Assembly (NCBI RefSeq): GCF_000015585.1
Contig: NC_008789.1
Location: 1,620,001-1,652,000 of the forward strand
Direction: 5' to 3'
DNA: 32,000 nt
Origin: Halorhodospira halophila SL1
Lineage (GTDB): Bacteria > Pseudomonadota > Gammaproteobacteria > Nitrococcales > Halorhodospiraceae
Position 1 is the stretch's first letter. Every line of letters begins with the position of its first letter. Shown here piece by piece: positions 7,033 through 32,000 of the stretch. The notes below the pieces were generated by a model, which saw only the letters and a program-made list of their open reading frames with translations, had not been told where the DNA came from and searched no databases. The position numbers and the translations under genes were made by a program.

Positions 7033-7179
7033 CCGCGGCGATAAAGCGCACGGGGTGCGCGCCTGAGTCCCGCCCACCCCCCTCCAACACCGCCGGTTTC
7101 TTGAGCCACACTGATGGAAGTGTCTTTTTGTCCGGCCCCCGGGCCGGGCCCACCAGGCAGGCATGATGGAGTCGTCTCT

Positions 7180-9848: not shown

Positions 9849-9988
9849 TCCCCTGCCACTTCCCCCGCTCGAACCTCCACTACACTTGACTGGTGACGGT
9901 CCAGTATCGCAGCCACTGGCCAGCGTTTAGGTCGATATTCAGATCCGGTGGGATTTTTTCGAAAGGCGCGAGCCGCGGAGGTTGGCAA

Positions 9989-14531: not shown

Positions 14532-14533
14532 GG

Positions 14534-15781: not shown

Positions 15782-17091
15782 GGCTCAAGCGCCTCGCTTT
15801 CCACCCAGCGATACTTCCCGGACGCACTCGGCGGTATCACGGAAACCCGCTCGAAACGCACCGGCACCTCCATCCCGAGGGTCCGACGCAGGCCCTCTGC
15901 CACCTGACGCGCCTCGGCCTCCCCCCAATCGGCATCGGCAACCACCTGGATATCCAGGCTCCGGTCCGTTCGCTGCACAAGCCGGTATTGCACCACCTGC
16001 GGCACTTCCCGGAGCACATAGTTCGCCGCTGAGCCGTGGATCCGACGTCCCTCCGCCCCCACGAGGAAATCATTGCGACGCCCCTCTAACCGGTCGAGCA
16101 CCGGCAGCGGCGAGCCGCAGGGACAGGCTCCAGCGCTGACCCGGCCTCGATCCCCGACGCGGTAGCGGATCAGGGGCATGCCGAAACCGTCCAGGTTGGT
16201 GATCAGCAGATCGCCCACCCCGGAGGCGTCCGGCGCGTCCACCTCCACCCATACGTGCTCGGCGGCGATGTGCAGTCGCCCCTCACGACACTCATGGGCG
16301 GTCAGCCCGGCATCCCTAGACCCGTACTCATTGGCCACCGGCGGCGCTCCCAAGCCCGCTGTAATCGCCTCGCGCAGCTGCGGATAGAGCATCTCGGAGG
16401 TGCAGACGACCAAATCGGGTCGCCACCCCCCTAGCAGTCGCGGGTGATCCGCCGCATGGCGTGCCACCCGGGCGATGACCGTCGGGTAGCCGTAAACAAG
16501 GTGGGGGCGGAACCGGCCGAGGAAGCGCAAATAAGCCTCCAACCGATCCGGGCTCAGATCGTGCGCCGAACACAGCGCCTGGTTGAGCAGATACTGATCC
16601 TTGAACCGGCGAAACCGCGACGACTTGTTCAACTCGACGGGGGATCCCCAGAAATCCACTTGCCGATCCCCTGGGCGCACCCCGAACCAAGTGCGAAAAC
16701 GCAGCTTATGGGCGTTATGCCGGGTCTCCTTGACCGGATCGGTCCAGAACGTGAGCGGACGCCCCGAAGATCCGCCGGTGGACGAGGGCAGGAGCCTGCC
16801 CGGGTAGTGATCGCTACACAGCGCATCGCCGTGCTCGCGCACGGTATCCCGCTCGAGCACTGGGAAATCGGTGACCTCCAGGGCCCCGTTAGCGGGCAGC
16901 CGCGCCCGATAGAACGGCACCCGATCCCGACAGTGCTCCAGGAGGGCCGCCAGCTTCTCGCGACGCAGCCGGTACACCGCGTCGGGGTGCTGCTCGCCCC
17001 GACGCAGGGCCGCCAGTTCGGCGAGGGTTGCCCGGCCACGCAGCCGCTCATGGGCGGGCAACAGGAGCCCACGGACCAGCCAGGGGGTCAC
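15778..17091 (-). CDS. phenylacetate-CoA-ligase/CapK-like adenylate-forming enzyme
   Basis: The P-loop-like motif 'SSTGGSSGRPLTFW', plus 'EMLYPQLREAI', 'ANEYGSRDAG', 'GMPLIRYRVGDRG' and the C-terminal 'SASGKYRWV' fit the PaaK/F390-synthetase/CapK family. The start is placed at the GTG at 17091, which forms a GTGA overlap with the AsnB stop. The track start at 17145 would overlap asnB by 58 nt. Confidence 0.7.
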   Translation of the reverse strand: MTPWLVRGLLLPAHERLRGRATLAELAALRRGEQHPDAVYRLRREKLAALLEHCRDRVPFYRARLPANGALEVTDFPVLERDTVREHGDALCSDHYPGRLLPSSTGGSSGRPLTFWTDPVKETRHNAHKLRFRTWFGVRPGDRQVDFWGSPVELNKSSRFRRFKDQYLLNQALCSAHDLSPDRLEAYLRFLGRFRPHLVYGYPTVIARVARHAADHPRLLGGWRPDLVVCTSEMLYPQLREAITAGLGAPPVANEYGSRDAGLTAHECREGRLHIAAEHVWVEVDAPDASGVGDLLITNLDGFGMPLIRYRVGDRGRVSAGACPCGSPLPVLDRLEGRRNDFLVGAEGRRIHGSAANYVLREVPQVVQYRLVQRTDRSLDIQVVADADWGEAEARQVAEGLRRTLGMEVPVRFERVSVIPPSASGKYRWVESEALEP

Positions 17092-19001: not shown

Positions 19002-19007
19002 TGGCAG

Positions 19008-20207
19008 TTATCCCTTCCTTGCCACGGAGCCGCTCCGCGCCGGTGGCGCCAATAGCTCGCGATAAAGACTTTCGTAAGCCCCGACCATGGCCTCGACCGA
19101 GAAATGCTCCACCGCTCGCCGGCGCCCTGCAGCCCCTTCCAACGACCGACGGTGCGGCTCCTGAAGGTAGCCGGCCAGCCCATCACACAGCTGCTCGGGA
19201 TCACCCGCAGGCACCAGCGTCCCGGTCACCCCCTCCTCAACCAGCTCCGGCAACCCGCCGACCCGCGATGCCACCACCGGAAGGCCACTGGCCATGGCCT
19301 CAAGGACCGTCACCGGGATCCCTTCGGCGAGGGAGGGCAACGCAAAGACATCGAACGCCGCCAACCGGGTCGCGACATCGGTGCAGTTGCCCGTGAGTTC
19401 CACGGCATCGGCCACATCCAACTCCGCCGCCAACGCCCGAAGCGACTGCTCTTCAGGACCACTGCCAATCACTACCAATCGCAGATCCCCGCGCTTGGCC
19501 GAGAACCGCTCGCGAAGACGGGCGAAAGCCCGGATAAGCGTCGCCTGGTCCTTCACCGCCGTCAGCCGCCCGACGGTGCCAATCACCAGGACGCCCCCTT
19601 GCCCCGAATCCTCCTCCGATGATCGCCTCGCGGCCCGATAACGCTTTGTATCGACGCCGTTGTAGATGTGGCGCACCCGGCGCTTGGGGATCCGCACCCG
19701 CTCGGTGAGATACTCGGCCAAGTGGCGGGAGACCGTCACGTGCCGTTGCACCCAGGGACTGAGGGCCCGCCGCAGCCAGCGGTACCGCCAGCGGGTCCCG
19801 TCGAGATCGGCCATGTCCCAACCGTGCTCCGCGTGGACGCGGCCCGGCACGCCGCTCAGCGCGGCCACCGGCTGGCACTCCAAAGCGGCCAGGTTCGACG
19901 TATGCACCACATCCGGCCGCAGCTGACACAACAACCGATAAAGACGCCACTGGGTACCCAACCCCCACCCGGGGGGCTTGTGGAGGGCATGGACGGGCAC
20001 TCCATCCGGTAGCCGGCGACGGAACGCTTCATCGTAATCCGCCAGACAGACGACGACATGCCGGAAACCATGGTGGACGCTGCCGCGGACCAGCTCGACG
20101 AGGATGTTCTCCAGCCCCCCGACATCCAGACGATAGAGGATATGGGCAATCAGCGGGCGCGAGCCCTGCCCATCCCGGGGGCGCCGGCGATCATGGTCGA
20201 TCGTCAA
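19008..20207 (-). CDS. glycosyltransferase, PEP-CTERM/EpsH1-system-associated 'stp2' type (GT4)
   Basis: 399 aa. 'RPLIAHILYRLDVGGLENILVELV' at the N-terminus and 'VFALPSLAEGIPVTVLEAMASGLPVVASRVGGLPELV' (EX7E) are present. The TTG start makes a TTGA overlap with the XrtA stop. It lies immediately downstream of xrtA, as in other XrtA loci. Confidence 0.8.
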   Translation of the reverse strand: MTIDHDRRRPRDGQGSRPLIAHILYRLDVGGLENILVELVRGSVHHGFRHVVVCLADYDEAFRRRLPDGVPVHALHKPPGWGLGTQWRLYRLLCQLRPDVVHTSNLAALECQPVAALSGVPGRVHAEHGWDMADLDGTRWRYRWLRRALSPWVQRHVTVSRHLAEYLTERVRIPKRRVRHIYNGVDTKRYRAARRSSEEDSGQGGVLVIGTVGRLTAVKDQATLIRAFARLRERFSAKRGDLRLVVIGSGPEEQSLRALAAELDVADAVELTGNCTDVATRLAAFDVFALPSLAEGIPVTVLEAMASGLPVVASRVGGLPELVEEGVTGTLVPAGDPEQLCDGLAGYLQEPHRRSLEGAAGRRRAVEHFSVEAMVGAYESLYRELLAPPARSGSVARKG

Positions 20208-21784
20208 CGTCCCCGAACCTCCTCCAGGGTCCCCAACAACTCGGGCAGCGCAGCCTCCGCAAAACGACGCAGGGCCGGCTCAACCTCCTCTGGATCATCG
20301 GGATAAAGCGCATAGAGCACCACCAGCGCTGCATCGTCGCGCCCCCCGAGCAAGCGGGACAGCGACTCCCGCGCCTTCACTTCGTGGGGGCTGGTGGTCA
20401 GCCGGTCCGTCACCCAGTACCAACGCCAGGCCAGGATCTGTCGATTCGGCCCGGTGAGCTCGAATCGTGCCGGGCGGGTCCAATCATCGATCTCCGCCCG
20501 CCCGGCCGAGCGTTGCCGCCAGGCGTCCCGATCCCGGCCGGCCATGGTATTATCCCAAGTGATCATATTCCCGTGCCGGAATTGCTCCCGGTAGTAGCCC
20601 ACGTAGACCCCCACCGGAACCCCTTGCCCATCGACATAGTGCCGGTGGAAGGCCGCGCGCGCGTTGCGATACCCCGGCTCCCAGGGATCGGCCTCGATCG
20701 CCTCCCAGTCATTGAGGGGCAGCTCCGCCTCCTCCAACCCGGCAACAGGGCCGAGATCCCGCTGATTCATCCATCCGGCGTAGAGCGGCCCGGAAGCGAC
20801 CAGTACTCCCCCCGTCAACGCCACCCCGGCAACCGCAGCAACCGAACGCGATCCAAGCCCTGTACTGTCGCTAAGCCGCTCCGCCATGCCACCGCCGCCT
20901 GGACCGGGCGCTGCCCCCTCGGAGATCGGCCGATCCTCGCGCCAGTAGGTCCCGATCCAGAACATCAGCGCGATCACCGCACCGAAGAACACCCAGCCAT
21001 AGATCAGATGATCGACCCCCGCGGCCAACTCCATGCCACTGAGATGTCCGATCATCACGATCGCATAGGCGCGCAGACCGTTGGCGAGGATCGGCACCAG
21101 GAACGAGAAGGCCACGAAAACCAGCCGGCGCATCCAGCTTCGGTAAACCAGGTAGGCGTACAGCGTGCCCAGGGCGACGGTAGCGATGAGGTAACGCACG
21201 CCACTGCACGCCTCGACCACGGACCAGCGGCCGGTCGGCAACTCGAAGTTCAGTCCTTCGCGATAGACCGGCACGCCGGTTTGCTGCACTGCCCATACCG
21301 TGAAGTCGGCAGTCCAGTCCATCAGCGGCGGGACCAGGAACTCACCGAATGGGACGGCAGAGATCAGGTAGGCCAGCGGGAAGAGCAGCGTCCAGGCGAC
21401 GGCGTTGCCCAGGCTCAGCCAGACGACAGCCGGGATCAGGAGCACCGCCGCGAAGTGGCGCACGGAGTCGACGTCCACCAACGCGCCGAGCACCCAGAGC
21501 AGGACCAGTCCGGCGACCGGCACCAGGGCCAGTGGTTGCACTCTGGGCTGTTGATCCGCCAGGGGGTGACGCAGCCGATAAACCAGGAAGAGGACGATGG
21601 GCACGATCAGGAAACCGTGGGCGAAGGTCTCTGAGCGTGACCAAATACCCACAATAGCCTGATAGGTTGGCAGGAAGGCGATCGCCAGCACCACGCCGAG
21701 CAGTGCCAATGCCGCCCCGTGCAGGTACCACGGCGCTCGATCCCCGAGCCCACCGCCGACAATCGCATCCGGGTTACTGGCCAT
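20204..21784 (-). CDS. xrtA: exosortase A (XrtA) fused to a C-terminal EpsI-family domain
   Basis: The N-terminal polytopic membrane domain carries 'WSRSETFAHGFLIVP' and the catalytic-Cys motif 'EACSGVRYLIATVALG', followed by 'ANGLRAYAIVMIGH'. After one further TM helix, about 200 aa ('YVGYYREQFRHGNMITWDN', 'WRWYWVTDRLTTSPHEVKA') look like EpsI. The ATG at 21784 has GAGG 6 nt upstream; the GTG at 21796 is an alternative start. Confidence 0.85.
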   Translation of the reverse strand: MASNPDAIVGGGLGDRAPWYLHGAALALLGVVLAIAFLPTYQAIVGIWSRSETFAHGFLIVPIVLFLVYRLRHPLADQQPRVQPLALVPVAGLVLLWVLGALVDVDSVRHFAAVLLIPAVVWLSLGNAVAWTLLFPLAYLISAVPFGEFLVPPLMDWTADFTVWAVQQTGVPVYREGLNFELPTGRWSVVEACSGVRYLIATVALGTLYAYLVYRSWMRRLVFVAFSFLVPILANGLRAYAIVMIGHLSGMELAAGVDHLIYGWVFFGAVIALMFWIGTYWREDRPISEGAAPGPGGGGMAERLSDSTGLGSRSVAAVAGVALTGGVLVASGPLYAGWMNQRDLGPVAGLEEAELPLNDWEAIEADPWEPGYRNARAAFHRHYVDGQGVPVGVYVGYYREQFRHGNMITWDNTMAGRDRDAWRQRSAGRAEIDDWTRPARFELTGPNRQILAWRWYWVTDRLTTSPHEVKARESLSRLLGGRDDAALVVLYALYPDDPEEVEPALRRFAEAALPELLGTLEEVRGR

Positions 21785-23027
21785 CAGCTGCCTCACTCAA
21801 CGCGTGTCCCTCATCGTCATCAATCCGTTCGGTCGTGCCAGCGAGCAGCCGGTCGAGCCGGCCAAGATGCCGGGCCCAACTGTAGTCCTGCACGACGCGC
21901 CTTCGCGCAGCTGCCCCCATACCATCGCCCCCGTCCAGGCACCGGCAGACCGCTTCGACCATTGCTTCCGGCTGCGCCTCGGCGCTTTCCACTTCCACCC
22001 CTAGGGCGACCTGCAGTCCTTCCAGGGCCTCCGGCGAAGCGACGATCGGCCGGCCGAGGGCCATCGCCTCGAGTACCTTGTTCTGGATCCCTCGGGCCAC
22101 ACGCAGCGGCGCCACGGCCACGGCTGCGTGACCAACCCAGGGGCGGACGTCGTCCACAAAGCCGGTGACGGTCACCCCGGGGCGGTTTGCCAGCGCAGCC
22201 ACTGCCGGCGTCGGCCGATTACCGACCACGTAGAACCGAGCCGCTGGCTCCCGGGCCCGGACCTGGGGAAAGGCCTCCTCAGCGAACCAGCAGGCCGCAT
22301 CGGCGTTCGGCCAATAATCCATGGCGCCCGTCAGGACCACCGGCCGCTCGTCGGCGGCGTAAGGGCTCGGCCCAAGAAGCCTCGGGTCGAAGTAGTCCGT
22401 ATCCACGCCGTTACTCATTGCCGAGACGCTTTGCGCCGACTCCGGCGCGAGACTCCGGAACGCCGCCGCCTCGTCCGTAGAAACAAACAAGCTGGCGTCG
22501 CTCGACGCCGCCAGGTGTCGTTCGTAGGCCAATAGCCGGCGTGCCTCGCGGGCAAAGACCGCCCGCAGGGGCCAGGGACGATGGCGCGCGTACTGACCCC
22601 ACTTATCGGAGTCGATGTCGACGAAATCCACCACCCGCAGTAGCGAAGGTGGCCGATCCGGCACGTACGGCCCCATCGACGAGGAGAAGCACATCGCGAC
22701 ATCGATTGGCTGCGCTTGGCACACCTGGCGAACCCACTGCGCCAGGTGCCGGTCCCGGTACCAGGGCAGGGTCAGCGGCTCTCCAGTGAGAAAACCGCCA
22801 AGCGCGCGCAGCTGCGCCCGCCGCCGCGGCAGTGGACGCGCGCACACGCTCGCGCAAACCGCTTCCAGGTCGGGGAGGAAACGCCAATCGTCCGGGTCAT
22901 CGACAAAGGTCCCGAGGTGGACCCGGTGGCGCTCCGTCAAGTGACGGAGGATATGGTAAGAGCGGATCTTATCGCCCTTGTTCGGCGGCCACGGCACGCG
23001 ATGCACCAGGAACAGGATCTCGGCCAC
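21774..23027 (-). CDS. glycosyltransferase, PEP-CTERM/EpsH1-system-associated 'stp1' type
   Basis: 417 aa. The N-terminus 'MAEILFLVHRVPWPPNKGDKIRSYHILRHL' is the highly characteristic start of this family. It sits directly upstream of xrtA and overlaps it by 11 nt. Confidence 0.85.
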   Translation of the reverse strand: MAEILFLVHRVPWPPNKGDKIRSYHILRHLTERHRVHLGTFVDDPDDWRFLPDLEAVCASVCARPLPRRRAQLRALGGFLTGEPLTLPWYRDRHLAQWVRQVCQAQPIDVAMCFSSSMGPYVPDRPPSLLRVVDFVDIDSDKWGQYARHRPWPLRAVFAREARRLLAYERHLAASSDASLFVSTDEAAAFRSLAPESAQSVSAMSNGVDTDYFDPRLLGPSPYAADERPVVLTGAMDYWPNADAACWFAEEAFPQVRAREPAARFYVVGNRPTPAVAALANRPGVTVTGFVDDVRPWVGHAAVAVAPLRVARGIQNKVLEAMALGRPIVASPEALEGLQVALGVEVESAEAQPEAMVEAVCRCLDGGDGMGAAARRRVVQDYSWARHLGRLDRLLAGTTERIDDDEGHALSEAADGQ

Positions 23028-23035
23028 GCTCCCTC

Positions 23036-24067
23036 CTACCCCAGACCCCGGACCACGATGGGTCCCAATCGATTCACCACCGAAAGCGGCAACCGCTGCC
23101 AGATGCGGATTGCTTGCCGGTACCGCGGATTGAGCGGATTGTGCTCGGGGATCGTGCTGCGCTTGTAGAGCTGGTATTCGTAGGCCAGCGGCTGCGGCTC
23201 GAACCCCCAGTTGCGCTTGAAGTGGTAGGCACCGGTCCCCTTCTTGCTCCGCCCGAAATCAAACAGCCGGTACCCCTCCTCACACCCCCGGCGCATCAAC
23301 TCCCAGTAGAGGAAATCGTAGCCCGCCACCTCGCGCGCCGCAGGCAATCCGCCGCCGTAATAGGGCAGAATCTCATCCCGGAAATAGAACGTCAGGACAC
23401 TCGTAACCGGCTTCCCGTCGTGGGACACCATCAGTACGCGGCAGTCGTCACCGAAGGTCTCCGCCAGTAGGTGGAAGTAACAGCGTGGAAAGACCGGCGT
23501 ACCCAGACGGTGGACACTTCGCGCATAGAGGTCGTGAAAGCGGTCGAGATCGGCCTCCCAGGTCGCTTCCAAACCGGCCTTGATCCCCTGGCGCACCATT
23601 CGCCGCTGCTTGCGCGGGATGGCTTGGAAGTTCGCGTCCTCGTCAGCCGCCAGGGATTTCCGGAAGGTGGCGTACAACGCATCCTGGCGCGGCCACTCCG
23701 TATGCACCGGCGCGCGGTGGCGATACTCCAGAAACTCTACACCCAGCGCCCGGGCACGCTCCTGAGCCGCATGGTCGAGCGCCTTCCGCGCCGATTCATC
23801 GGCAGCGACCACCCCGCCATAGACGCAGAAGGGGGTGGAAATCAGGGCATCGCTGAACAACCAGCTCTTGCTGCGTGCCAGCGGAAGCACCCCCACGATC
23901 ACCCCGTCACGCTCGGCGTAGAGATACTCCGTTACGTGACCGAACGCCTCGCGCAGGACCCGCGCCCAGCCGCTGCGGTGGAAAAAGGTGGCCTCCGGCG
24001 ACTGCTGAACGAAAGCGTCCCAGCGGGCCTCGTCCGCCGCTTCCAGTCTCGCTACGCGTAGATCCAT
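23036..24067 (-). CDS. FemAB-family (GNAT-fold peptidyl/aminoacyl-transferase-like) protein, PEP-CTERM-system-associated
   Basis: 'WDAFVQQSPEATFFHRSGWARVL', a duplicated acyltransferase-like fold, and the C-terminal 'FDFGRSKKGTGAYHFKRNWGFEPQPLAYEY' match this family. The ATG at 24067 is preferred; the track's TTG at 24103 is an alternative. Confidence 0.8.
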   Translation of the reverse strand: MDLRVARLEAADEARWDAFVQQSPEATFFHRSGWARVLREAFGHVTEYLYAERDGVIVGVLPLARSKSWLFSDALISTPFCVYGGVVAADESARKALDHAAQERARALGVEFLEYRHRAPVHTEWPRQDALYATFRKSLAADEDANFQAIPRKQRRMVRQGIKAGLEATWEADLDRFHDLYARSVHRLGTPVFPRCYFHLLAETFGDDCRVLMVSHDGKPVTSVLTFYFRDEILPYYGGGLPAAREVAGYDFLYWELMRRGCEEGYRLFDFGRSKKGTGAYHFKRNWGFEPQPLAYEYQLYKRSTIPEHNPLNPRYRQAIRIWQRLPLSVVNRLGPIVVRGLG

Positions 24068-24115
24068 TCCTGTACCGCTTCTCCCTGTCTGCTGGCGCTC
24101 CAAAGCGGCTAACTT

Positions 24116-25021
24116 TCAGAATGCCTGGGCTGAAACCGCCTGCCCGGCCTGCCAGTCGCTGACACCGGCCAACTCCGGCGCAAAGACGCGATCGATCCGA
24201 TCCCAGTCCAGATCCTGGAGCAACCGACTGAGCCGCTGCTCCGTGCGATGCAGGTTCACGTAGTGACGAACGCGGGTGCGGAGATCGATGCCCGGGACCC
24301 GCGGCTGCTCGGGATCGAGCTCCCAGGGGTGAATATAGAACACCGCCGGCTGCCCCTCCGCTTGGGCGATCCAGCGCAGAGCTGCCCACGAGACCCGGTA
24401 GGGCAGAAGTCGAAAATAGCCGCCGCCACCCGCCGGAAGATTCCGACCAAGGAGCCGAAGCGTCGCCGGGGGCAACTCTAGGAGGCCGCCTTGCCCATCC
24501 GGACGATGGGCGTGTCGTGGTGCCTCAGGGGTGCCGTAGTGGTCATGCCGGACCGGGTAGACGCTTGAGCTGTAGCGGTGACCGGTCTCCTGCAGGATCT
24601 CTCGCGCCCAGGGCGTTCGCGGCCCGATGGAAAAGGCCGGCGCCCGATAACCGACCACCGGCACCCCGCCGGTGTCTTCCAACAGCCCCTTAGCCCGGAT
24701 CAAATCCTCGCGGAATGCGCGCGGCCCGATCTCCCAGACGCGCTCATGCCCGTATCCGTGGCTCGCCAACTCGTGACCGGCAGCCACGATGCGGCGGACA
24801 ACCTGCGGATAGCGCTTCGCCACCCAGCCGAGGGTAAAGAACGTGCCGCAAACACAGCGGTCGGCACAGATCTGCAGAAGCCGATCCATGCTTGCCTCGA
24901 TGCGACAAGGCCAGCGCTCCCATGCGTCCCGCCCCACATACGGCGCCATGGCCAGGACTTGAAAGTAATCCTCGACATCCACTGTCAGCGCATTGCACCG
25001 CGCCCAGCTGCGCTCCTCCAT
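24116..25021 (-). CDS. polysaccharide deacetylase (CE4), PEP-CTERM-locus subfamily
   Basis: 301 aa. 'NALTVDVEDYFQV' is the NodB-type Asp motif. 'GHELASHGYGHE' is the His-His metal motif. 'GGGYFRLLPY' is also present. Confidence 0.85.
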   Translation of the reverse strand: MEERSWARCNALTVDVEDYFQVLAMAPYVGRDAWERWPCRIEASMDRLLQICADRCVCGTFFTLGWVAKRYPQVVRRIVAAGHELASHGYGHERVWEIGPRAFREDLIRAKGLLEDTGGVPVVGYRAPAFSIGPRTPWAREILQETGHRYSSSVYPVRHDHYGTPEAPRHAHRPDGQGGLLELPPATLRLLGRNLPAGGGGYFRLLPYRVSWAALRWIAQAEGQPAVFYIHPWELDPEQPRVPGIDLRTRVRHYVNLHRTEQRLSRLLQDLDWDRIDRVFAPELAGVSDWQAGQAVSAQAF

Positions 25022-25071
25022 GGCCCATCCCCCTTTGGGGCCTTTCCGCCCCCGTCATCCCCACGCGGCAG

Positions 25072-26187
25072 TCACGGTTCCCCGCGGTTTACCTCCAGTG
25101 CCCGCTTGAGCGAGCCACTCACCTGACGCGTCAGGCGGTAGCCGGAAATCAGATAACGCTCAACCCGCTCCAAGCGCTGATTCAGCCGTTCCTGGTCTTC
25201 ACGCTGAACATTGACCAGCTGCTGTACCCGCTTATAGGTGAAACCGAGGTAACGCTCGATCCGCTGCAGCCGCTGCTCTAGAGTTTGTCGGTCGGTACCG
25301 AGCCCCTCCCGGGCGTTTTCCGGATCCTGCTCCGAAGGAGAACTCGGGGCTGCATCCCCGTTATCCGCCTCGCCCAGATCGGCCTCCACCTCGTCGATAA
25401 CCGACTGCACCTCACGGACAGTAAACTCGTGGCACTCCTCCAAGTACCCCATCAGAAGCAACCGGTCGCAGAGCGTATTGATCCGCCTCGGGGTTCCCTG
25501 AGTGTAGTCGTAGATCCGCTGCCACGCCCCCTCTGAGAAGCTCGGATCCGCCTCCCAACCCACCTGGGCGAGCCGGTGCTCGATGTAGGCCCGGGTATCT
25601 TCAGCATCCATCGGGCCGAGGTGATAGGTGGCGATCACCCGCTGACGCAACTGCTGCATATGCTCACTGCGCAGGAGTCGCCGAAACTCCGGCTGACCCA
25701 ACAGAAAGCTCTGCAGCAGTGGGCCACCCTCGTCGCCCTGAAAGTTCGAGAGCATGCGCAACTCCTCGACGGCTTCATCGTTGAGGTTCTGCGCCTCGTC
25801 CACTACGAGCAGCGCACGCTGGCCACGGGATCGAATCCGAACAAGAAATCGCTCCAACTCCCGCAACTGATCGGCCTTGTTCTGCGGTGGGTTCTCGATC
25901 CCGAAGGCGAGACAGACCAGCCGCAGCAGGTTATCCGCGCTCAGTCGGGTGCTGACCAGGTGGGCCGCGAGCAGCGGGCGATCAACGATGCCGCTGAGTA
26001 GACTCCGCGCCATGGTCGTCTTACCGGCACCGACCTCTCCGGTGATGACGATAAAGCCCTCGCCCTGCTGCACCCCATACTCCAGGTAGGCCATCGCCCG
26101 GCGGTGGCCTTTGCTGGCGTAGAAGAAACGTGGATCGGGGCTCAGCGCGAATGGCTTGTCGCGCAGGCCGTAGAAGTCTTCATACAT
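25072..26187 (-). CDS. ExeA/GspA-like AAA ATPase, XrtA/PEP-CTERM-locus subfamily, with repeat-containing C-terminal extension
   Basis: 'MYEDFYGLRDKPFALSPDPRFFY', Walker A 'GEVGAGKTT' and Walker B 'ALLVVDEAQNL' are present. The last ~100 aa form an acidic linker plus two copies of an 'L.QRL.R(I/V)ERYL...Y(K/R)' segment. Confidence 0.85.
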   Translation of the reverse strand: MYEDFYGLRDKPFALSPDPRFFYASKGHRRAMAYLEYGVQQGEGFIVITGEVGAGKTTMARSLLSGIVDRPLLAAHLVSTRLSADNLLRLVCLAFGIENPPQNKADQLRELERFLVRIRSRGQRALLVVDEAQNLNDEAVEELRMLSNFQGDEGGPLLQSFLLGQPEFRRLLRSEHMQQLRQRVIATYHLGPMDAEDTRAYIEHRLAQVGWEADPSFSEGAWQRIYDYTQGTPRRINTLCDRLLLMGYLEECHEFTVREVQSVIDEVEADLGEADNGDAAPSSPSEQDPENAREGLGTDRQTLEQRLQRIERYLGFTYKRVQQLVNVQREDQERLNQRLERVERYLISGYRLTRQVSGSLKRALEVNRGEP

Positions 26188-26194
26188 AGGCGGC

Positions 26195-27685
26195 TTAGAA
26201 TTCCATGGTCAGGCGGGCACTGATGCGGTTCTCGCGACGGCGCTCGTCCAAAGCGAGGTCCTCACGCCCCTCGACGCGCTGCCGGTGGATCAGATCCAAA
26301 TCGCCCGAGGTCCGCCGCCCCAGGCTGCGCGAAAGACCCAAGGAAAGACGGTACTCCTCGCTCTCGCGCTCCTGATCGTCGACATCTCGCCCCTCGATCC
26401 AGCGGTAGACCCCCCGCAGCGTGGCATCCGTCCGCGCTCCGAAGGACCAGCCCCACCGCCCAACGACGCGGCGCTCGCGCTCCACCGCGTCCTCGAACCG
26501 GTCGTCACCAATCCCAAACTCCTCGTCGCTGTCCCTCTGGATGAACTCCAACCGGAAGCTGTGGGGGCCGGTGGTATAGTCCCAGCTGCCACGCCAGGTC
26601 TCGGCAAAGGTGATTCGGTCCTCATCGACGAGCAAGTCATCCGCGTCGAGAAAGCCGAACTCGGCCAGAAGCCGATCAAACTCGGTTGCCTCGGGATCAA
26701 GGGCGCGTCCCAAGCCGTCCGTCCGCCCCTCGGCGTAGGAGAGCCGCCAGGTGGAGCGCGGCGCCTGGTGGACCAAGCCCAACGATCGCTGATCTCGGCG
26801 ATTCGTCTGATCCGTGTCGTCGATCTGGTCCTTGAACTGGCCGTAACTCCCAGATATCTGCGTATTCCGGGTGATGTCCCAGTCGGCGTTGACCCGCCAG
26901 CTCTGGGTGTCGCGGCGCCGATCCTCGACCCGAATCCAGCCATCCGATCCGGATAGGCTCAGGCGCAACGACCGGCCGAACCGGTACCCCAAGGTGGCCT
27001 GGTTGGAGAAACGATCAATCTCGGCGCGCTCCGGATCGTCGAAGCGATCCCAGTTGCGTTCGGAGCGGAACTGCCAGAAGGTGCGACCGAACTGCGGGCC
27101 GCTATCCAGCTGGTATTGGGCGCGATGCACCTGTTGCGGCTGGCGATCCGATCGGTGGTAACGGGCCTCGTCGAAGACGTAACGCACCTCTTGCTCCGAG
27201 AAGCGACCCTGCCGCCACACCCAGTAAGGGCTGATGCGGTAGCGGGTCGTCTCCTGCTGATCCCGCGCGGTTACCGGATCGAAGATCGATTCCGCCCGCA
27301 CACTGCGGCGGATGGAGCCCTCCACGAAGATCGACTCCCGCACCAACTCGGCGTTGCCACTTCCGCGCAGATTGTGGGTACTTCGGTCCCGGTCGCTATC
27401 GCGCCAGTAAAGCCGGTTGTCCCACGAGTAATTGAGGTCGAGTTCGGCACGCGCGCCCTCTCCACTCAGGGTCAAGCTCGGCCGCAAGAGCGTAACCAGG
27501 TCACTCTCCTCTGCACCCCGCGGGGAAAAATCGGCGTTGTCGGTCCACTCCTGACCAACGGTCATGCGCGGGGTGAAGGTCCACTGTGTCGAAGCGATAC
27601 TGGCCCCGGAAATCAGCAGAAGCCCCAAGGCGGCCGCGGCGCCCGGCAGCGCCCGCGCCCTAGCTACCCTCGGCGACACGGCCAT
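26195..27685 (-). CDS. outer-membrane beta-barrel protein of the PEP-CTERM-locus family (uncharacterised)
   Basis: The ATG at 27685 has AAGGAAG 5 nt upstream and a signal peptide 'MAVSPRVARARALPGAAAALGLLLISGASIAS'. Alternating beta-strand-like sequence rich in R/D/W/Y runs throughout, and the protein ends in an OMP-style terminal Phe ('RLTMEF'). The 32-codon upstream extension in the track is the BY-kinase Tyr-cluster repeat read in another frame. Confidence 0.8.
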   Translation of the reverse strand: MAVSPRVARARALPGAAAALGLLLISGASIASTQWTFTPRMTVGQEWTDNADFSPRGAEESDLVTLLRPSLTLSGEGARAELDLNYSWDNRLYWRDSDRDRSTHNLRGSGNAELVRESIFVEGSIRRSVRAESIFDPVTARDQQETTRYRISPYWVWRQGRFSEQEVRYVFDEARYHRSDRQPQQVHRAQYQLDSGPQFGRTFWQFRSERNWDRFDDPERAEIDRFSNQATLGYRFGRSLRLSLSGSDGWIRVEDRRRDTQSWRVNADWDITRNTQISGSYGQFKDQIDDTDQTNRRDQRSLGLVHQAPRSTWRLSYAEGRTDGLGRALDPEATEFDRLLAEFGFLDADDLLVDEDRITFAETWRGSWDYTTGPHSFRLEFIQRDSDEEFGIGDDRFEDAVERERRVVGRWGWSFGARTDATLRGVYRWIEGRDVDDQERESEEYRLSLGLSRSLGRRTSGDLDLIHRQRVEGREDLALDERRRENRISARLTMEF

Positions 27686-28658
27686 CCGCTTCCTTGGCGG
27701 CGCTGCTCCGGGGCTCCCCACCGTATTTACCGTAACCGTAACCGTAGCCGTAGCCGTAACCGCTGTATCCCAGCCCTCCATGACCGGTCGCTTTGTTGAG
27801 CATGGTCAGCACCACGTCGCACCCCTCCAGCAGCTCCGCGGCCCGCATCACCGCCGTTTGCGCCGTACCCTCAGCCTCGATCACGAGGAGCACCTGCCCC
27901 ATCTCCCGGGCCAGCACACTCGGTTCACTGGTCGAGAGCAGCGGGGGGGAATCGAAGAGGATCACCCGATCCGGGTAGCGCTCGTGGATCTCCTCCAGCA
28001 GATCGGTCATACCCTGACTGGCCAGTAACTCCGTCGAACGACCGTGGGGACGTCCGGCTGGCAACACACTGAGATCAGGGATATCGGTGCGCAGGAGCAC
28101 GTCCGGCAGACGAAGATCAGAGTCGGTCAACAGGTCCATGAGCCCCCTGTCGGCCGCGAATCCAAGTGTTCGCGGGACGCTCGGACGTGCCACGTCGGCA
28201 TCGACGACCAGAACCGTGCGATCCACCTCCATGGCGATGCTCAGCGCGAGGTTGATCGTGGAGAAGGTCTTACCCTCCCCGGGGACGGCACTGGTCACCA
28301 TGATCAACCGCCCTTTATCCACTACCGGCATGCCATGGCGCCCGAAGGCGTTATCGAGCAGCGGGCGCTTCATCAAGCGGAACTCCTCTTCAAGCCCGCT
28401 GCGCGCCTCTCCTGGAACCTGGATCCCCTGATGGCGCAACCACCCGTAATCAATCCGGACGTCGGCCGGTCGTTCGACGGTGCGCGGCGCGCGTCCGAAC
28501 TGCGGCGTGGAGGGCCTGGCCTGCGCATATTCCGTCTGGGTCGTCTCGCCCGCCGGATCGGCCTCCTGTTGTCCGGCCCCCTGGACCGAACCTTGCGCTT
28601 GTGCACCGGGTGCCTGGTTGCCTCGGCGCTTCTCCAGCGCCCGCTCGATAATGCTCAT
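27660..28658 (-). CDS. epsG: chain-length-determinant BY-type protein tyrosine kinase (EpsG type)
   Basis: Walker A 'SAVPGEGKTFSTINLA', Walker A' 'VLVVDADV' and Walker B 'VILFDSPP' are present. The C-terminal tyrosine cluster is 'GYSGYGYGYGYGYGKYGG'. The gene sits 15 nt downstream of epsF. Confidence 0.85.
   Translation of the reverse strand: MSIIERALEKRRGNQAPGAQAQGSVQGAGQQEADPAGETTQTEYAQARPSTPQFGRAPRTVERPADVRIDYGWLRHQGIQVPGEARSGLEEEFRLMKRPLLDNAFGRHGMPVVDKGRLIMVTSAVPGEGKTFSTINLALSIAMEVDRTVLVVDADVARPSVPRTLGFAADRGLMDLLTDSDLRLPDVLLRTDIPDLSVLPAGRPHGRSTELLASQGMTDLLEEIHERYPDRVILFDSPPLLSTSEPSVLAREMGQVLLVIEAEGTAQTAVMRAAELLEGCDVVLTMLNKATGHGGLGYSGYGYGYGYGYGKYGGEPRSSAAKEADGRVAEGS
27723..27766 (-). repeat. 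imperfect hexanucleotide (GGY-TAC)n tract encoding the BY-kinase C-terminal Tyr cluster
   Basis: The plus strand reads gtaacc gtaacc gtagcc gtagcc gtaacc (27732-27761), flanked by two more Tyr codons. That gives seven Tyr within 15 residues. Confidence 0.9.
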
Positions 28659-28673
28659 ACGCCCCTCGTCCGA

Positions 28674-30218
28674 CTAGGCAAAAAAGACCCCAACCACCAC
28701 CCCATAGGCAACCAACAAGGCTCCGGTTGCGCTGAAGAAGACGAGCATCTCCATGCGCCTGCGGCGCCGGTGGGCCGGCGTTCGCACCCGCGAGATCTGC
28801 CCCATGACGGGCCGCCCGGTGAGCTCGCCGAGCTGGCCGGGCGCGGCCACCGTGCCGCGAATCTGGGCCAGCAGGAAGGCGAATCCCGTGCCGGCCCCCA
28901 GCCCCAGGACCAGAACCGCGCTGCCCAGCAGGGGGCGGTTCGGCGCTGCCGCCTCACTTGGCTGCTCCGGTGGCTGCAGGACGCGAAAGTCCACCGAGTC
29001 CGCGCCTGACTCCACTTCGCCGGTCAGCACAGCCTGCTCAAGCCGATCCCGTAACTCAGAGTAGCTGTTCTGCAGGACTTCGTAGTCCCGTGTGAGCCGA
29101 CTGTATTCCGACTCGATCTCCGGCACGTCGTCGGAGACCGCCTCAAGTTCCTGGACCCGCAGGCGCTGCTCCTCAACCCGAGTCTCCAGCGAGGCCACAC
29201 GGCTTTCCGATTCGGCCAACTCCAGCTGCAGCGGATGATCGGGCTGACCTAGACCAACGCGATCTACCGGGGAGGCCATCAGGCTCTCGCTGAACTCCAC
29301 CGCCTGCTCCTCCCGCTCCTCGCGCAGATCCTCAAGGACGCGCTGCGTATGCGCCACGTCCGGATGCTGATCGGTATACTGGCGGCGCAGCTCATCAAGC
29401 TCGGATTCCAGGTTACTGATGCGAGCGTCTAGCTCCGGATTCTCGAACTCCGGAGGCTGCACTAATCCGGGGTGATCGCCATCGCCCTCAAGCTGTGCGA
29501 TGAGGCTCTCATAATGGCTTTGAGCCTGCTCAAACTCCAACTCCGCCTCAGCTAACCGCTCACGCTCGGCCCGCAAGCGGCTATAAAAATCGCCGCCGGC
29601 CAACAGAACCTCCGAGTGCTCACGGCGAAAATCCTCAAGCTGCTCTTCCTTCGCCCGCAGCCGAGTGCCGTAACGGTCGAGCTGATTCTCGATAAAATCG
29701 CGCGAGGCCGTCAGATCCGTCCGCGGGTCACCGAGGCCCCGCTCCATGAAGAGGTCACCGGTCTGACGCACCACGCGATAGGCCACCTCCGGGTCCTCAT
29801 CGGAAAAACTGATCGTATAGATATTGTCCCCAGCCCCACTTTCGTCACCCCCGCGCAGATCGATGTCCTGCAGGCTATCGACGGCGCGGTCGATGTCGTC
29901 GTAGCCGAGGAGAATGTCGAGGTCCGCCTGCCGCGCGATCTCACGCAGGTTATCCCGGCTCAGCAGCGTGCTGGTAATCATGTTCATCCGCTGCTCAGCG
30001 TCCGGTCGCACCGTCATGCCGCCGAGCAGTGGACCGAGCACCGAATCCGTATCGACGTAGACCTCGCTCGACGCCTCGTAGGTGTCGGGGAGGGCGTGGA
30101 TGTACGCCCACCCGGGTATACAGACCAGCCAAGCGATGGGAAGGATCCACCACCGTCGACGCCAGGTCGCTCGCAGTTGGTGCAGCACTTCCTGGACGAC
30201 CTGCTCCATCTGCCCCAT
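28674..30218 (-). CDS. epsF: PEP-CTERM-locus polysaccharide chain-length determinant (EpsF type, PCP partner of EpsG)
   Basis: 514 aa, with the ATG preceded by GGGGAG at 9 nt. It has an N-terminal TM helix after 'LRATWRRRWW', a long periplasmic coiled-coil region, a second TM helix 'LLGSAVLVLGLGAGTGFAFLLA', a short cytoplasmic basic segment 'RVRTPAHRRRRR' and a terminal TM helix. The kinase gene follows immediately. Confidence 0.85.
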   Translation of the reverse strand: MGQMEQVVQEVLHQLRATWRRRWWILPIAWLVCIPGWAYIHALPDTYEASSEVYVDTDSVLGPLLGGMTVRPDAEQRMNMITSTLLSRDNLREIARQADLDILLGYDDIDRAVDSLQDIDLRGGDESGAGDNIYTISFSDEDPEVAYRVVRQTGDLFMERGLGDPRTDLTASRDFIENQLDRYGTRLRAKEEQLEDFRREHSEVLLAGGDFYSRLRAERERLAEAELEFEQAQSHYESLIAQLEGDGDHPGLVQPPEFENPELDARISNLESELDELRRQYTDQHPDVAHTQRVLEDLREEREEQAVEFSESLMASPVDRVGLGQPDHPLQLELAESESRVASLETRVEEQRLRVQELEAVSDDVPEIESEYSRLTRDYEVLQNSYSELRDRLEQAVLTGEVESGADSVDFRVLQPPEQPSEAAAPNRPLLGSAVLVLGLGAGTGFAFLLAQIRGTVAAPGQLGELTGRPVMGQISRVRTPAHRRRRRMEMLVFFSATGALLVAYGVVVGVFFA

Positions 30219-30426
30219 GGGTATCTGACTCCCCCAGCTTTCGTGCCGGAACCACTCTGGGGCAAGGCTAGCAGTGTCCTACGAGTCCGCAAGTTCGGTT
30301 CGTAACCCTTTACAAAACCAGGACAACACCCGGTGTCAGCGTTATTGACGCAAGCTTTGCACGGAAAACGCGAGGCTTTGCCGGGACACTTGCACACAGG
30401 GGCTGAAGGGGATGACGACGACCGCT

Positions 30427-30442
30427 TGGCACGGCACATGCA
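30427..30442 (+). promoter_or_regulatory. candidate sigma-54 (RpoN) -24/-12 promoter upstream of the PilZ gene
   Basis: TGGCACGgcacATGCA compared with the consensus TGGCACG-N4-TTGCW. The -24 element matches 7/7 and the -12 element 4/5. The invariant GG (30428-29) and GC (30440-41) have exactly the canonical 12-nt offset. The site is intergenic, about 110 nt upstream of the GTG at 30550. Confidence 0.5.
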
Positions 30443-30500
30443 GACCGGCCCCCGGCAATAGGCATTCGTAAGATCGCCGTTGCCCTGGACGCATAACCAC

Positions 30501-30544
30501 GAACATCCATGAACCTCGGAGAACATCCACGACCCTCGGAGAAC
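30501..30544 (+). repeat. 20-nt tandem direct repeat (2.2 copies) in the PilZ gene leader
   Basis: gaacatccatgaacctcgga (30501-30520) and gaacatccacgaccctcgga (30521-30540) are 18/20 identical and are followed by gaac. Each copy ends in an SD-like GGAG. The second GGAG lies 9 nt upstream of the GTG start. Confidence 0.85.
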
Positions 30545-30549
30545 TTAAC

Positions 30550-31119
30550 GTGAACGCCCTCGACCTGGCAGAGGAGTTGGCCGATTTCTGGCTCCCGGTA
30601 CTGGCGAAGCGCTCCTGGGAGGTGCGTGCCGACATGCTGGAGCAGATCCTTGGGCAGTTGGCGGACGACACCCCCGACCCCATGCTCTACCGCCGCCTGG
30701 TCGCGTTTTTCCTGGCGACCGCGATCGATCGCCTTGCGGCCGATGAGCCGGTCGCCAGCCAGGCGCAGGCACGGATCTACATCCAGTCGGCCGATCCGAA
30801 GCACCGCGCAATGGCCCTGGAACGCTTCCCCGAGGTCCACTCACGCCCTGCGTGGCGCGGCCACCCCCGTAACAACCCCCTGGACCGACGGGCCGCCCCG
30901 CGACACCGCCTAACCGCCGAAGCAGGCATCGAAGCCGCCCGTACCAAGATCACGTGTCGGATCCACAATATCTCAAAGTCCGGAGCCCTAATTACCCTAC
31001 ATTTAATGCTTCAACCAAGCGATGAGGTTCACCTGACGCTGCGATCTCGCGACCAGCCGATAAACGGTCAGGTGGCGCGGGTTTCCGATCATGGCTGTGG
31101 CATCCTGTTCTGCGCATAA
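30550..31119 (+). CDS. PilZ-domain (c-di-GMP-binding) protein with unrecognised helical N-terminal domain
   Basis: 189 aa, starting at the first canonical start codon (GTG) after an in-frame stop at 30469-30471. The C-terminal ~90 aa carry both PilZ signature motifs with typical spacing: RxxxR ('RAAPR') and (D/N)xSxxG ('NISKSG'). A beta-barrel-like 'VHLTLR...INGQVARV...GCGILF' follows. Confidence 0.65.
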   Translation: MNALDLAEELADFWLPVLAKRSWEVRADMLEQILGQLADDTPDPMLYRRLVAFFLATAIDRLAADEPVASQAQARIYIQSADPKHRAMALERFPEVHSRPAWRGHPRNNPLDRRAAPRHRLTAEAGIEAARTKITCRIHNISKSGALITLHLMLQPSDEVHLTLRSRDQPINGQVARVSDHGCGILFCA

Positions 31120-31308
31120 AGGAGACCTCGCGAGAACACCGGCCATCGCTCCGAGACTCGTCGCGAGCGCGAGTCCTTTACCCCACCGATAATATCGTTT
31201 TTACCTTAAATGACCCACCACGCTGCCGTGACGATGCTGTAGCATATTCATCGGTCCGATTCACGTTCAACCCCAAACGTCATGAGGATGAGGACAATTG
31301 GAGTTCGC

Positions 31309-32000
31309 GATGTCATCCCCCTACTCCCGCTACAAGGTCATCCTGGCGACCGAAGATCAGGCGCGGTGCGCCCATTTCCAGTTACGATACATGGTTTATT
31401 GCGAAAAGAAGCAATATGAATCTTCAAGCCTTTTCCCGGATGGATATGAACGTGACGACCACGACAGTCACGCGCTCCACCTGCTTCTAAAATACACACC
31501 ACCGGGATCCCAGACGAATCGAAACGTGGGCACGATTCGTCTAATAAAAGGCGGAAACAAACCTCTTCCGATCGAGAACATCTCCGACCTGAACAGCAAT
31601 GAATTCACGAATGAATATAGTGGCGAGCTCTCGCGACTCGCTATCCATGAAGTGCCTTCAGGCCACGACACCCTCCCGCTGTTTATCCTCTGCCGTGCTG
31701 CACAGCACCACGCCAGGGGGTGTGGGATATCACGGCTATACTTCCTCGCTCGACCGGCGCTGGCCCGACATCTAACCCGTAACCATTTACCCTTCGAGCA
31801 GGCTGGTTCGCCTTGCTATCACCGCGGCCGCCGCATACCGTACGCGATGGACGTAAATGGCTTTGCTCGGGGGTTAGCGCGGTGGGAAAAGAAACTCATA
31901 AAACAGAAATTAGCCCCATCAAGTAAAACTGAAACCCTCCACGCCTACCAACATCCTAATAGACTTTCTGACATGGTTCCGAACGGCTGCCTGCAGACGA
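31309..32000 (+). CDS. PEP-CTERM/exosortase-system-associated acyltransferase (GNAT-like, related to LuxI / N-acyl amino acid synthases); 3' end outside the window
   Basis: This ORF is not in the supplied track because it has no stop in the window. I translated it by hand: the ATG at 31309 has GGAG 6 nt upstream, and the frame stays open for 230 codons to nt 32000. 'YKVILATEDQARCAHFQLRYMVYCEKKQYES...DGYERDDHDSHALHLLLKY...NVGTIRLI...PLPIE' and 'GELSRLAIHE' match my recollection of the conserved N-terminal pattern of this family. Confidence 0.65.

Follow-up and report, generated by a model that had tools for sequence, protein, structure and literature searches.

A two-domain PilZ protein as a candidate c-di-GMP receptor of the XrtA/PEP-CTERM system in Halorhodospira halophila SL1

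In a 32,000-nucleotide stretch of the Halorhodospira halophila SL1 genome (contig NC_008789.1, positions 1,620,001 to 1,652,000 of the forward strand; hereafter the window), a gene with a C-terminal PilZ domain lies beside an exopolysaccharide (EPS) operon of the XrtA/PEP-CTERM type. We consider it probable that this gene encodes a soluble cytoplasmic receptor for cyclic di-GMP (c-di-GMP) that is dedicated to the XrtA/PEP-CTERM system and is controlled by PrsR and RpoN. The evidence comes from a conserved two-domain family with intact c-di-GMP motifs, from the recurrence of PEP-CTERM-system markers beside the family gene in varied gene orders, and from a system-specific promoter box ahead of the gene.

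PEP-CTERM/exosortase systems occur widely among bacteria of sediment and soil and among those that form biofilms and flocs, activated-sludge bacteria included, and the master signal that turns cells over to matrix production is c-di-GMP. To our knowledge, little has been established about the regulation and physiological logic of the PEP-CTERM system, and no signal has been described for PrsK. The first-pass annotation of the window, made from the sequence alone, was aware of no c-di-GMP receptor described for PEP-CTERM/exosortase systems, and the full-text literature we searched agrees: it yielded none, only a paper on fusions of N-acyl amino acid synthases (NAS) with PilZ domains and circumstantial reports. 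In Rubrivivax, a diguanylate cyclase is required for a biofilm that depends on a PEP-CTERM-type cluster (PMC3684757). PilZ adaptors as such are a known kind of protein; what is new here is the pairing with an undescribed domain and the tie to the PEP-CTERM system.

Domain architecture and c-di-GMP motifs

The open reading frame (ORF) claimed in the first-pass annotation is present, and the N-terminal text quoted there corresponds to residues 6-40 of its product. It opens with a GTG codon, 8 nt behind a GGAG Shine-Dalgarno sequence (30538-30541), and yields a 189-residue protein (Table 1). In RefSeq the protein appears with two alternative starts, as WP_011814311.1 (189 residues, starting at 30550) and WP_242464096.1 (102 residues, starting at M88, 30811); the shorter removes the conserved N-terminal domain and is likely a start-site mis-annotation. 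We take the 189-residue form, also used by the GenBank record ABM62289.1, to be the real one because the region before M88 is conserved family-wide and an independent gene caller (run on L038, which extends past the window edge) picks it. No transmembrane segment, hydrophobic span or enzyme domain is predicted in this form, which is modelled as a globular soluble protein.

Table 1. Features of the PilZ gene and its surroundings, in window coordinates
Feature	Position	Strand	Basis
Gene for the 189-residue two-domain protein, stop codon included	30550..31119	+	ORF list; exact match to ABM62289.1 / WP_011814311.1 (Halorhodospira halophila SL1)
Novel helical N-terminal domain, residues 1-98	30550..30843	+	AlphaFold2 models; unmatched in Pfam, NCBIfam and PDB
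Flexible interdomain linker, residues 99-118, ending in RxxxR (R113-R114-A-A-P-R118, nt 30889-30903)	30844..30903	+	Low model confidence (pLDDT) at ~101-120; R114/R118 invariant in 25/25
PilZ beta-barrel, residues 119-189, with N140-I-S142-K-S-G145 (nt 30967-30984)	30904..31116	+	Pfam PF07238; Foldseek; S142/G145 invariant
PEP-CTERM-box motif 1, predicted PrsR enhancer site, TGTCAGCGTTATTGACG	30334..30350	+	Bipartite scan; variant of TGTC-N7-TTTACA
Sigma-54 -24/-12 element, TGGCACGGCACATGCA	30427..30442	+	76 nt after motif 1; 107 nt before GTG
Tandem duplication of 20 bp (2.2 copies) within the 5' leader	30501..30544	+	Tandem Repeats Finder score 74, 91% matches
NAS1, PEP-CTERM/exosortase-associated acyltransferase, co-directional; gene cut by the window end	31310..32000	+	TIGR03694, 119 bits vs 112 cutoff
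Divergent XrtA/PEP-CTERM EPS operon	11518..30218	-	NCBIfam equivalog-level matches

The C-terminal part matches the Pfam PilZ model PF07238 over residues 112-185 with 37.8 bits against a gathering cutoff of 22.5 (E = 2.5e-9), a significant result that bears out the domain call made by eye. Both signatures named in the first-pass annotation, RAAPR (residues 114-118) and NISKSG (residues 140-145), are canonical; the spacing given there as 24 residues is in fact 21 (R118 to N140). Among 25 aligned full-length family members, both c-di-GMP motifs occur in all 25, in a 26-residue register in 24 and a 30-residue register in one (P0053). R114 and R118 are invariant throughout, as are S142 and G145, and position 140 is D in 22 members and N in three. 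This conservation is strong evidence of selection for ligand binding. An AlphaFold2 model of the full-length protein, built on the family alignment, reached a mean predicted local distance difference test score (pLDDT) of 90 and a predicted template modelling score (pTM) of 0.60, with six barrel strands at residues 119-187 at a pLDDT of about 95. When the whole protein was compared with the PDB in Foldseek, only the barrel was matched, with probability 1.0 to many solved PilZ domains. The matches were to c-di-GMP-bound PilZ structures, among them PA0012 (8u0i; TM-score 0.80, root-mean-square deviation 2.2 Å), Alg44 (4rt0), BcsA, MapZ, VCA0042, YcgR, PlzA and MrkH. Motifs and fold together predict c-di-GMP binding.

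The first-pass annotation described the N-terminal domain as a helical stretch of about 100 residues unlike anything it recognised, and the searches agree. For the query protein, no match to this domain was found in Pfam, NCBIfam or PDB sequences, and no Pfam or NCBIfam family was matched over it in any of 49 family members. Modelled alone from 49 sequences, the domain reached a pLDDT of 94.4 and a pTM of 0.86, with six helices at residues 3-19, 23-40, 44-63, ~71-78, 83-92 and 94-98, and a Foldseek search with the domain alone returned no structural neighbour in the PDB (best E = 2.2, TM-score ≤0.42). A beta-rich YcgR_N/PilZN domain was not encountered either: Pfam gives PilZ only, and the N-terminal domain is all-helical. 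Its conserved residues are W14, W23, R26, Q73-A74, S80, H85 and A89. The domain is acidic (median isoelectric point 5.1), and this acidity, together with the lack of a hydrophobic span, is in keeping with a module for protein contacts in the cytoplasm and not with one that binds DNA or sits in a membrane. DNA binding was considered separately and is unlikely, given the acidity and the absence of a helix-turn-helix match. The lower pTM of the full-length model (0.60 vs 0.86 for the N-terminal domain alone) suggests that the two modelled domains are mobile relative to each other.

Relatives came to light only through an exhaustive HMMER search of 1.84 billion representative proteins, which returned 56 representatives at E ≤ 1e-3; a word-indexed homologue search with the single protein gave no relatives. 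Most members are 185-215 residues long and share the two-domain layout. Across the 25 full-length members, W14, W23, R114, R118, S142, G145 and V175 are invariant, and L10, R26, Q73, A74, S80, H85, A89, A146, G184 and F187 are nearly so. The pattern for scanning metagenomes was built on a tight alignment of eight sequences, the 25-sequence alignment being too diverse. PF07238 was found in 27 of 49 family sequences, the remainder being N-domain-only. There is no curated NCBIfam model that names the family, with no match for the query at E ≤ 10, so the family is unnamed; among the 49 members no specific NCBIfam match appeared, only weak CelA or TIGR02266 matches over the PilZ region. About 20 further matches are N-domain-only proteins of 99-146 residues, with C-termini of their own and a shared signature, QAHIYANSxxxxHRxxAGxWL. 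This standalone occurrence marks the N-terminal domain as an independent evolutionary module.

The protein resembles the known PilZ adaptors (MapZ/PA4608, PA0012, VCA0042/PlzD, YcgR and PlzA) in being soluble and in carrying a barrel with canonical RxxxR and (D/N)xSxxG motifs. As in the two-domain adaptors, its RxxxR lies in a flexible segment N-terminal to the barrel. The known adaptors act by c-di-GMP-dependent protein-protein contacts. It differs from them in its partner domain, which is all-helical and of about 98 residues rather than the beta-rich PilZN/YcgR-N, and in its surroundings, since this family is found with exosortase/PEP-CTERM loci and not with flagellar, chemotaxis or pilus genes. 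The Foldseek alignments with YcgR and VCA0042 cover the barrel only, over about 85-100 columns. The match to MrkH is weak and likewise restricted to the barrel (E 0.04-0.4), and the helical, acidic N-terminal domain seen here contrasts with MrkH-like PilZ transcription factors, basic proteins whose PilZ-like N-terminal domain provides a surface for DNA binding.

Locus association and the PEP-CTERM box

As the first-pass annotation had it, the PilZ gene stands head to head with an XrtA EPS operon, which is canonical and lies on the minus strand. The two are separated by a 331-bp intergenic region that ends at the gene for a chain-length determinant (ChnLen, TIGR03007, 28674-30218, minus strand). 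The operon then continues with a tyrosine kinase (TIGR03018), an outer-membrane protein (TIGR03016), an ATPase (TIGR03015), a deacetylase (TIGR03006), FemAB (TIGR03019), the stp1 glycosyltransferase (TIGR03087), XrtA-EpsI (TIGR03109, 345 bits), stp2 (TIGR03088) and an amidotransferase (TIGR03108); ten genes of the operon, XrtA among them, exceed NCBIfam equivalog or hypothetical-equivalog cutoffs. An AMP-ligase-like protein, two glycosyltransferases and a 581-residue protein without assignment make up the remainder. Markers of the PEP-CTERM system thus stand to either side of the PilZ gene, the XrtA operon on one and the downstream NAS gene on the other. The earlier account of these surroundings was right about the operon and missed the NAS. 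It had also placed the PilZ gene where an OPX/Wza gene normally sits. OPX does precede ChnLen in the alpha-type loci L006, L007 and L028, but in the gammaproteobacterial locus L022 it lies beyond prsK/epsB2, and no OPX gene was found within the 32-kb window. Replacement of OPX by the PilZ gene was rejected because OPX is elsewhere in gamma-type loci and the idea has no functional support.

We assembled 31 loci outside the window with a full-length or partial family gene (29 from genome and metagenome scans, plus L037 and L041) and scored them with the window's own XrtA-locus proteins and with PrsR, PrsK, EpsB2 and OPX queries. XrtA/PEP-CTERM markers lie directly beside the family gene in 23 of the 31 (21 of the 29 scan loci, L037 and L041), and the marker-bearing loci span Gamma- and Alphaproteobacteria. 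Neighbours were identified above NCBIfam cutoffs as PrsR (TIGR02915, 724 bits), PrsK (TIGR02916, 709), TIGR03013 (521), exosortase-A O-ligase (TIGR03097, 423), amidotransferase (TIGR03108, 936), PrsT (TIGR02917, 527) and PepA (154). Gene order varies. In arrangement A, that of the window, the XrtA operon with ChnLen at its near end diverges from the PilZ gene, which is followed on its own strand by NAS (L001, L008, L009, L010, L017, L023 and L041-43). In arrangement B, ChnLen again diverges from the PilZ gene, whose other flank is occupied by genes on the opposite strand, in the order prsR, prsK, epsB2 and OPX (L003 and L022; partial in L004, L005, L011, L018-21 and L024). In arrangement C, the family gene closes a co-directional string of OPX, ChnLen, tyrosine kinase, outer-membrane protein, ATPase, deacetylase and FemAB (L006, L007 and L028, with members at 24-28% identity). 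The gene follows an ATPase gene in arrangement D (L025) and a gene for a MASE10-cyclase-amidotransferase fusion in arrangement E (L029), and in arrangement F it stands between a GGDEF-EAL gene and an exosortase-A O-ligase gene (L037), all co-directional. Overall, prsR adjoins the family gene in 10 loci. The association with XrtA loci, on which the first-pass annotation had staked its reading, therefore extends to the homologues, in several gene orders.

Standalone N-domain genes show a similar company. In L030, L031 and L032 they adjoin genes for PEP-CTERM substrates (TIGR02595 above cutoff), and one adjoins the gene for a 913-residue PrsT-like TPR protein. In L033, a small ORF separates a standalone gene from a downstream gene that is OPX-like (tblastn identity of 50% over a fragment at the contig end). 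The standalone proteins near PEP-CTERM-system genes are 108-118 residues long; several other contigs were too short to inform on context. The association with the system is carried by the N-terminal domain and not by PilZ.

A second line of evidence is the promoter region. Proteobacterial PEP-CTERM genes are preceded by a 17-nt motif with the 3' end TTTACA, a predicted PrsR site, then a spacer of mean 63 nt (32-92), a sigma-54 -24/-12 element and about 71 nt to the start codon (Haft 2006, PMC1569441). The PilZ gene has the same arrangement of a 17-nt motif, a spacer within 32-92 nt, the -24/-12 element and a leader in the range of ~50-110 nt, and as with such genes a large intergenic region usually precedes a unit of one gene. 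It differs from them in its predicted product, a cytoplasmic signalling protein and not a secreted PEP-CTERM substrate. We scanned for TGT[CT]-N7-NTNAC[AG] followed after 60-90 nt by a sigma-54 site of at least 8/11. The 32-kb window holds exactly one such strict bipartite box, at 30334-30442, against a mean of 0.035 in shuffled windows (7 of 200 with one or more), and TGGCACGGCACATGCA is the only match in the window to the sigma-54 consensus with one mismatch or fewer. Across 220,692 nt of related loci, 20 boxes were found where about 0.24 would be expected. Fifteen of these precede a full-length family gene by 51-101 nt, two precede standalone N-domain genes, one lies 55 nt upstream of the PEP-CTERM gene heading the L031 string that ends in a standalone N-domain gene, and two are the same sequence in L020 and L021, facing off the contig. 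The spacer is tightly constrained, mostly to 73-76 nt, and nine intergenic regions that could not otherwise be aligned share a GG-N10-GC element as their sole invariant block. The alpha-type loci have no strict motif 1; they carry a sigma-54 match of 10/11 at 57-86 nt upstream of the family gene. By these cis-elements, the family gene is a predicted non-substrate member of the PrsR/RpoN regulon.

The box shared by L020 and L021 (63-167 and 103-207, minus strand) is a second one in these loci, made up of TGTCAGGAAAATTGACG, a 72-nt spacer and TGGCGTAAATATTGCT; it faces away from the PilZ gene and has the same TTGACG variant of motif 1 as H. halophila. In the window itself, no sigma-70 promoter or intrinsic terminator was predicted in 30100-31500, and no convincing sigma-54 site was seen for the divergent EPS operon. 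Rfam gave no match in 30100-31400, which rules out a known riboswitch in the 107-nt leader. The tandem duplication in this leader doubles the Shine-Dalgarno-containing segment CTCGGAGAAC just ahead of the GTG, whereas only one copy is present in the Halorhodospira metagenome-assembled genome (MAG) L001; the duplication might influence translation or be a neutral slip. Its first copy also makes a 14-codon ORF (ATG at 30509 and 13 further sense codons), whose TGA stop (30551-30553) overlaps the GTG start.

The public annotation implies a plainer alternative, in which this is a generic stand-alone PilZ protein, or a degenerate one that binds no ligand, and its place beside XrtA is incidental. Its database names, 'Type IV pilus assembly PilZ' and 'PilZ domain-containing protein', are indeed generic, PilZ proteins occur in large numbers and frequently as orphans, and the word-indexed search gave no homologues. 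We regard this alternative as very unlikely. The conserved two-domain family keeps its locus association across gene orders, the promoter box is specific to the system, and the c-di-GMP motifs are invariant. Features of the non-binding PA2960-type class are absent, both motifs being intact, and no pilus genes were found near the PilZ gene in the window or downstream of it. Adjacency to XrtA by chance was accordingly rejected, on the varied gene orders and the box.

Several points weigh against a dedicated receptor under PrsR/RpoN control. Eight of the 31 loci have no clear marker; most of these are on contigs of less than 5 kb, and several still have the promoter box. In one of the eight, L016 (5.4 kb), the only neighbours of the family gene encode a lectin/Ig lipoprotein and a methyltransferase. 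Many loci come from related haloalkaliphilic Gammaproteobacteria and are not independent, which leaves about five or six independent arrangements. Its rarity relative to XrtA systems also excludes the family as a core component. Halorhodospira has variant forms of motif 1 (TTGACG or TTAACG), with TTGACG in place of TTTACA in the window. Finally, no prsR or prsK was found within the window or the next 8 kb downstream, and it is the cis-element that predicts PrsR dependence in H. halophila. On present data, the family is best described as an accessory of the PEP-CTERM system, found so far mostly in haloalkaliphilic Gammaproteobacteria and in some Alphaproteobacteria.

Candidate partners of the N-terminal domain

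How such a receptor would work can be sketched from its parts. Since the PilZ gene has a PEP-CTERM box of its own, it should be induced by PrsK/PrsR and RpoN, which would switch it on together with the PEP-CTERM substrate proteins. The nucleotide would bind between the linker arginines and the barrel, as in VCA0042, YcgR and PlzA, and once bound may fix the orientation of the N-terminal domain, in keeping with the difference in pTM between the full-length and single-domain models. The N-terminal domain would be the system-specific output module that engages or releases a cytoplasmic partner. If that partner were the PrsK/PrsR-sigma-54 signalling module, the result would be c-di-GMP-dependent feedback on how PEP-CTERM proteins and EPS genes are expressed.

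We tentatively favour the PrsK/PrsR-sigma-54 module as the most likely single partner, while rating it below an even chance. Several considerations lead to it: the feedback would be encoded within the regulon, prsR is frequently adjacent, standalone N-domain genes lie beside box-controlled substrate genes, and other enhancer-binding proteins that control EPS use c-di-GMP. The assignment is an indirect one, built on regulon membership, adjacency to prsR (10 loci), cytoplasmic location and analogy. FleQ, VpsR and Nla24/EpsI are sigma-54 activators that bind c-di-GMP, and c-di-GMP input into enhancer-dependent transcription of EPS and biofilm genes is common. Small helical proteins encoded within a regulon, such as HrpV and PspA, often feed back on the activator of that regulon. 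The protein described here differs from both groups: in the first the activator itself binds c-di-GMP, in the second the modulator has no nucleotide sensor, whereas in the present case the input would come from a separate PilZ adaptor. No similarity in sequence or structure to the c-di-GMP-binding sigma-54 activators or to HrpV/PspA was found, and the likeness is one of function only. A more specific and rather doubtful proposal is that the N-terminal domain represents a new class of module that binds PrsK/PrsR or the sigma-54 holoenzyme, which would make this the first known PilZ adaptor to feed c-di-GMP into an enhancer-dependent regulon.

The first-pass annotation had left the role between a post-translational and a regulatory switch for the locus. 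Regulon membership favours a regulatory or adaptor role, and an integral gate in the style of Alg44 or BcsA is disfavoured, the protein being soluble and without a membrane or synthase module. A post-translational gate on EPS could nevertheless take another form, in which the c-di-GMP-bound protein docks on ChnLen/tyrosine kinase, the TIGR03015 ATPase or XrtA and licenses assembly or PEP-CTERM sorting, with a function analogous to that of Alg44, BcsA or PelD. The PilZ gene is head to head with the ChnLen/tyrosine kinase genes in at least nine loci, it directly follows FemAB or the ATPase within the structural string in four others (L006, L007, L028 and L025), and the barrel resembles those of Alg44 and BcsA, with which it shares the motifs and a setting in an exopolysaccharide locus. 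Most well-studied EPS systems have a post-translational c-di-GMP checkpoint. Yet Alg44 and BcsA carry PilZ fused within a membrane co-polymerase or synthase, whereas here it belongs to a free cytoplasmic protein with its own predicted sigma-54 promoter; in most loci the gene has this enhancer-dependent promoter and is not embedded in the structural operon. Standalone N-domain genes adjoin PEP-CTERM substrate genes and not machine genes, and in Wzx/Wzy-type EPS systems c-di-GMP control is more often transcriptional. We judge such a gate unlikely.

The gene downstream offers another target. NAS1 (240 residues at full length, identical to P0064) has no PilZ domain, and 190 nt separate it from the PilZ gene in a different reading frame, so that here the two are separate genes. 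No terminator or sigma-70 promoter was predicted in this gap, and the box promoter therefore probably drives pilZ, nas1, nas2 and thiF together. Past the window edge (L038 10001-17166) lie the rest of NAS1, a second TIGR03694 NAS (179 bits) and a ThiF-like adenylyltransferase (NF006077, 474 bits), then a convergent cluster of a HAE3/MMPL RND exporter, a 494-residue protein without assignment and a DUF1329/LolA-like protein. The NAS pair, the ThiF-like gene and the exporter cluster could form a synthesis-and-export module for N-acyl amino acids. In one MAG of a Halorhodospira sp., an ISL3-family transposase gene (L001 10641-11933; DDE_Tnp_ISL3, 255 bits) sits between the PilZ and NAS genes, which are direct neighbours in H. 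halophila SL1.

The PilZ protein might accordingly regulate its NAS neighbour, making the production of long-chain N-acyl amino acids dependent on c-di-GMP through direct binding or an operon-encoded complex. NAS follows the PilZ gene on the same strand in every locus of arrangement A, with no terminator predicted in the window's gap, and a natural fusion exists. This is P0013, a continuous 496-residue ORF of N-domain, PilZ, linker and NAS (L041 7147-8637; also in L042 and L043) in which the intervening stop codon is lost; the identical sequence recurs on five contigs from three independent samples, and its locus includes PepA, PrsT and PrsR. Thies et al. (2016) independently reported N-acyltyrosine synthases that are active and carry PilZ at the C-terminus, and suggested that c-di-GMP controls them (PMC4897644). 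These enzymes, Nas343 and Nas354, resemble the present family in that a segment of about 80 residues without assignment precedes their PilZ; they differ in joining NAS and then PilZ in one polypeptide, where here separate genes encode PilZ and then NAS, and P0013 runs N-domain-PilZ-NAS. The natural and the published fusions make NAS a serious alternative target. However, no NAS gene lies near the family gene in arrangements B to F, including L022 (which extends 5.8 kb downstream), L006, L007 and L028, nor in the standalone N-domain loci (L031, 16 kb). None of 32 NAS relatives from a NAS profile search carries PilZ. The joint of about 95 residues in P0013 resembles translated intergenic DNA, which suggests that a stop codon was lost inside an operon and not that an interface evolved; a close relative of P0013, P0024 (228 residues), overruns the usual end by about 35 residues before its stop. 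Control of NAS as the main function therefore has, in our estimation, a low probability, comparable to that of the gate on EPS.

Neighbouring genes and wider meaning

Other genes beside the family gene also encode signalling domains. In an alphaproteobacterial MAG, the gene directly upstream (L029 564-4139) encodes a 1191-residue protein that joins a MASE10 membrane sensor, a class III nucleotidyl cyclase and a full TIGR03108 amidotransferase (936 bits); it is a second, different nucleotide-signalling link to the PEP-CTERM system. In L037, a GGDEF-EAL gene (1137-2783) lies immediately upstream of a divergent family member, in the same direction and followed by the TIGR03097 O-ligase, which suggests a local source or sink of c-di-GMP paired with the receptor. 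Genes for Trypsin_2-type serine peptidases recur upstream of the family gene in loci of arrangement B (L005 93-1247 and L020 2-1126). The window has a gene for a similar, trypsin-like peptidase at 4210-5094, and such peptidases may be another accessory of the system.

Within the window, two paralogous TIGR03007 chain-length determinants stand at the ends of the EPS locus, at 9893-11521 (plus strand, 468 bits) and at 28674-30218 (minus strand, 432 bits). The ChnLen beside the PilZ gene in L003, L010, L017, L022, L023 and L041 is nearer to the distal window paralogue (51-58% identity) than to the adjacent one. Just outside the locus, the gene for a small protein with a cyclic-nucleotide-binding domain (8479-8949, plus strand; PF00027, 44.5 bits) adjoins a cyclopropane-fatty-acid-synthase-like gene (7114-8409). 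Three large ORFs have no Pfam match: 11518-13263 (minus strand, 581 residues, the last operon gene), 5104-7032 (plus strand, 642 residues) and 15778-17145 (minus strand, 455 residues). The first two are also without a significant NCBIfam match, and the third has weak AMP-ligase-like matches below cutoff.

For the PEP-CTERM system, the protein provides the first testable candidate for a c-di-GMP receptor, and it does so in a cultivated, sequenced organism (H. halophila SL1, ABM62289.1). The family gene supplies a named non-substrate member of the PEP-CTERM-box regulon and connects c-di-GMP to exosortase-linked N-acyl amino acid synthases. Its N-terminal domain is a new marker of PEP-CTERM loci, and finding the partner of that domain would reveal a missing step of the system. 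Should the domain prove to bind PrsK/PrsR or sigma-54, exosortase substrates and XrtA-linked EPS would be jointly gated by c-di-GMP in a self-induced feedback loop, and the standalone N-domain proteins would be a signal-independent version of the same regulator.

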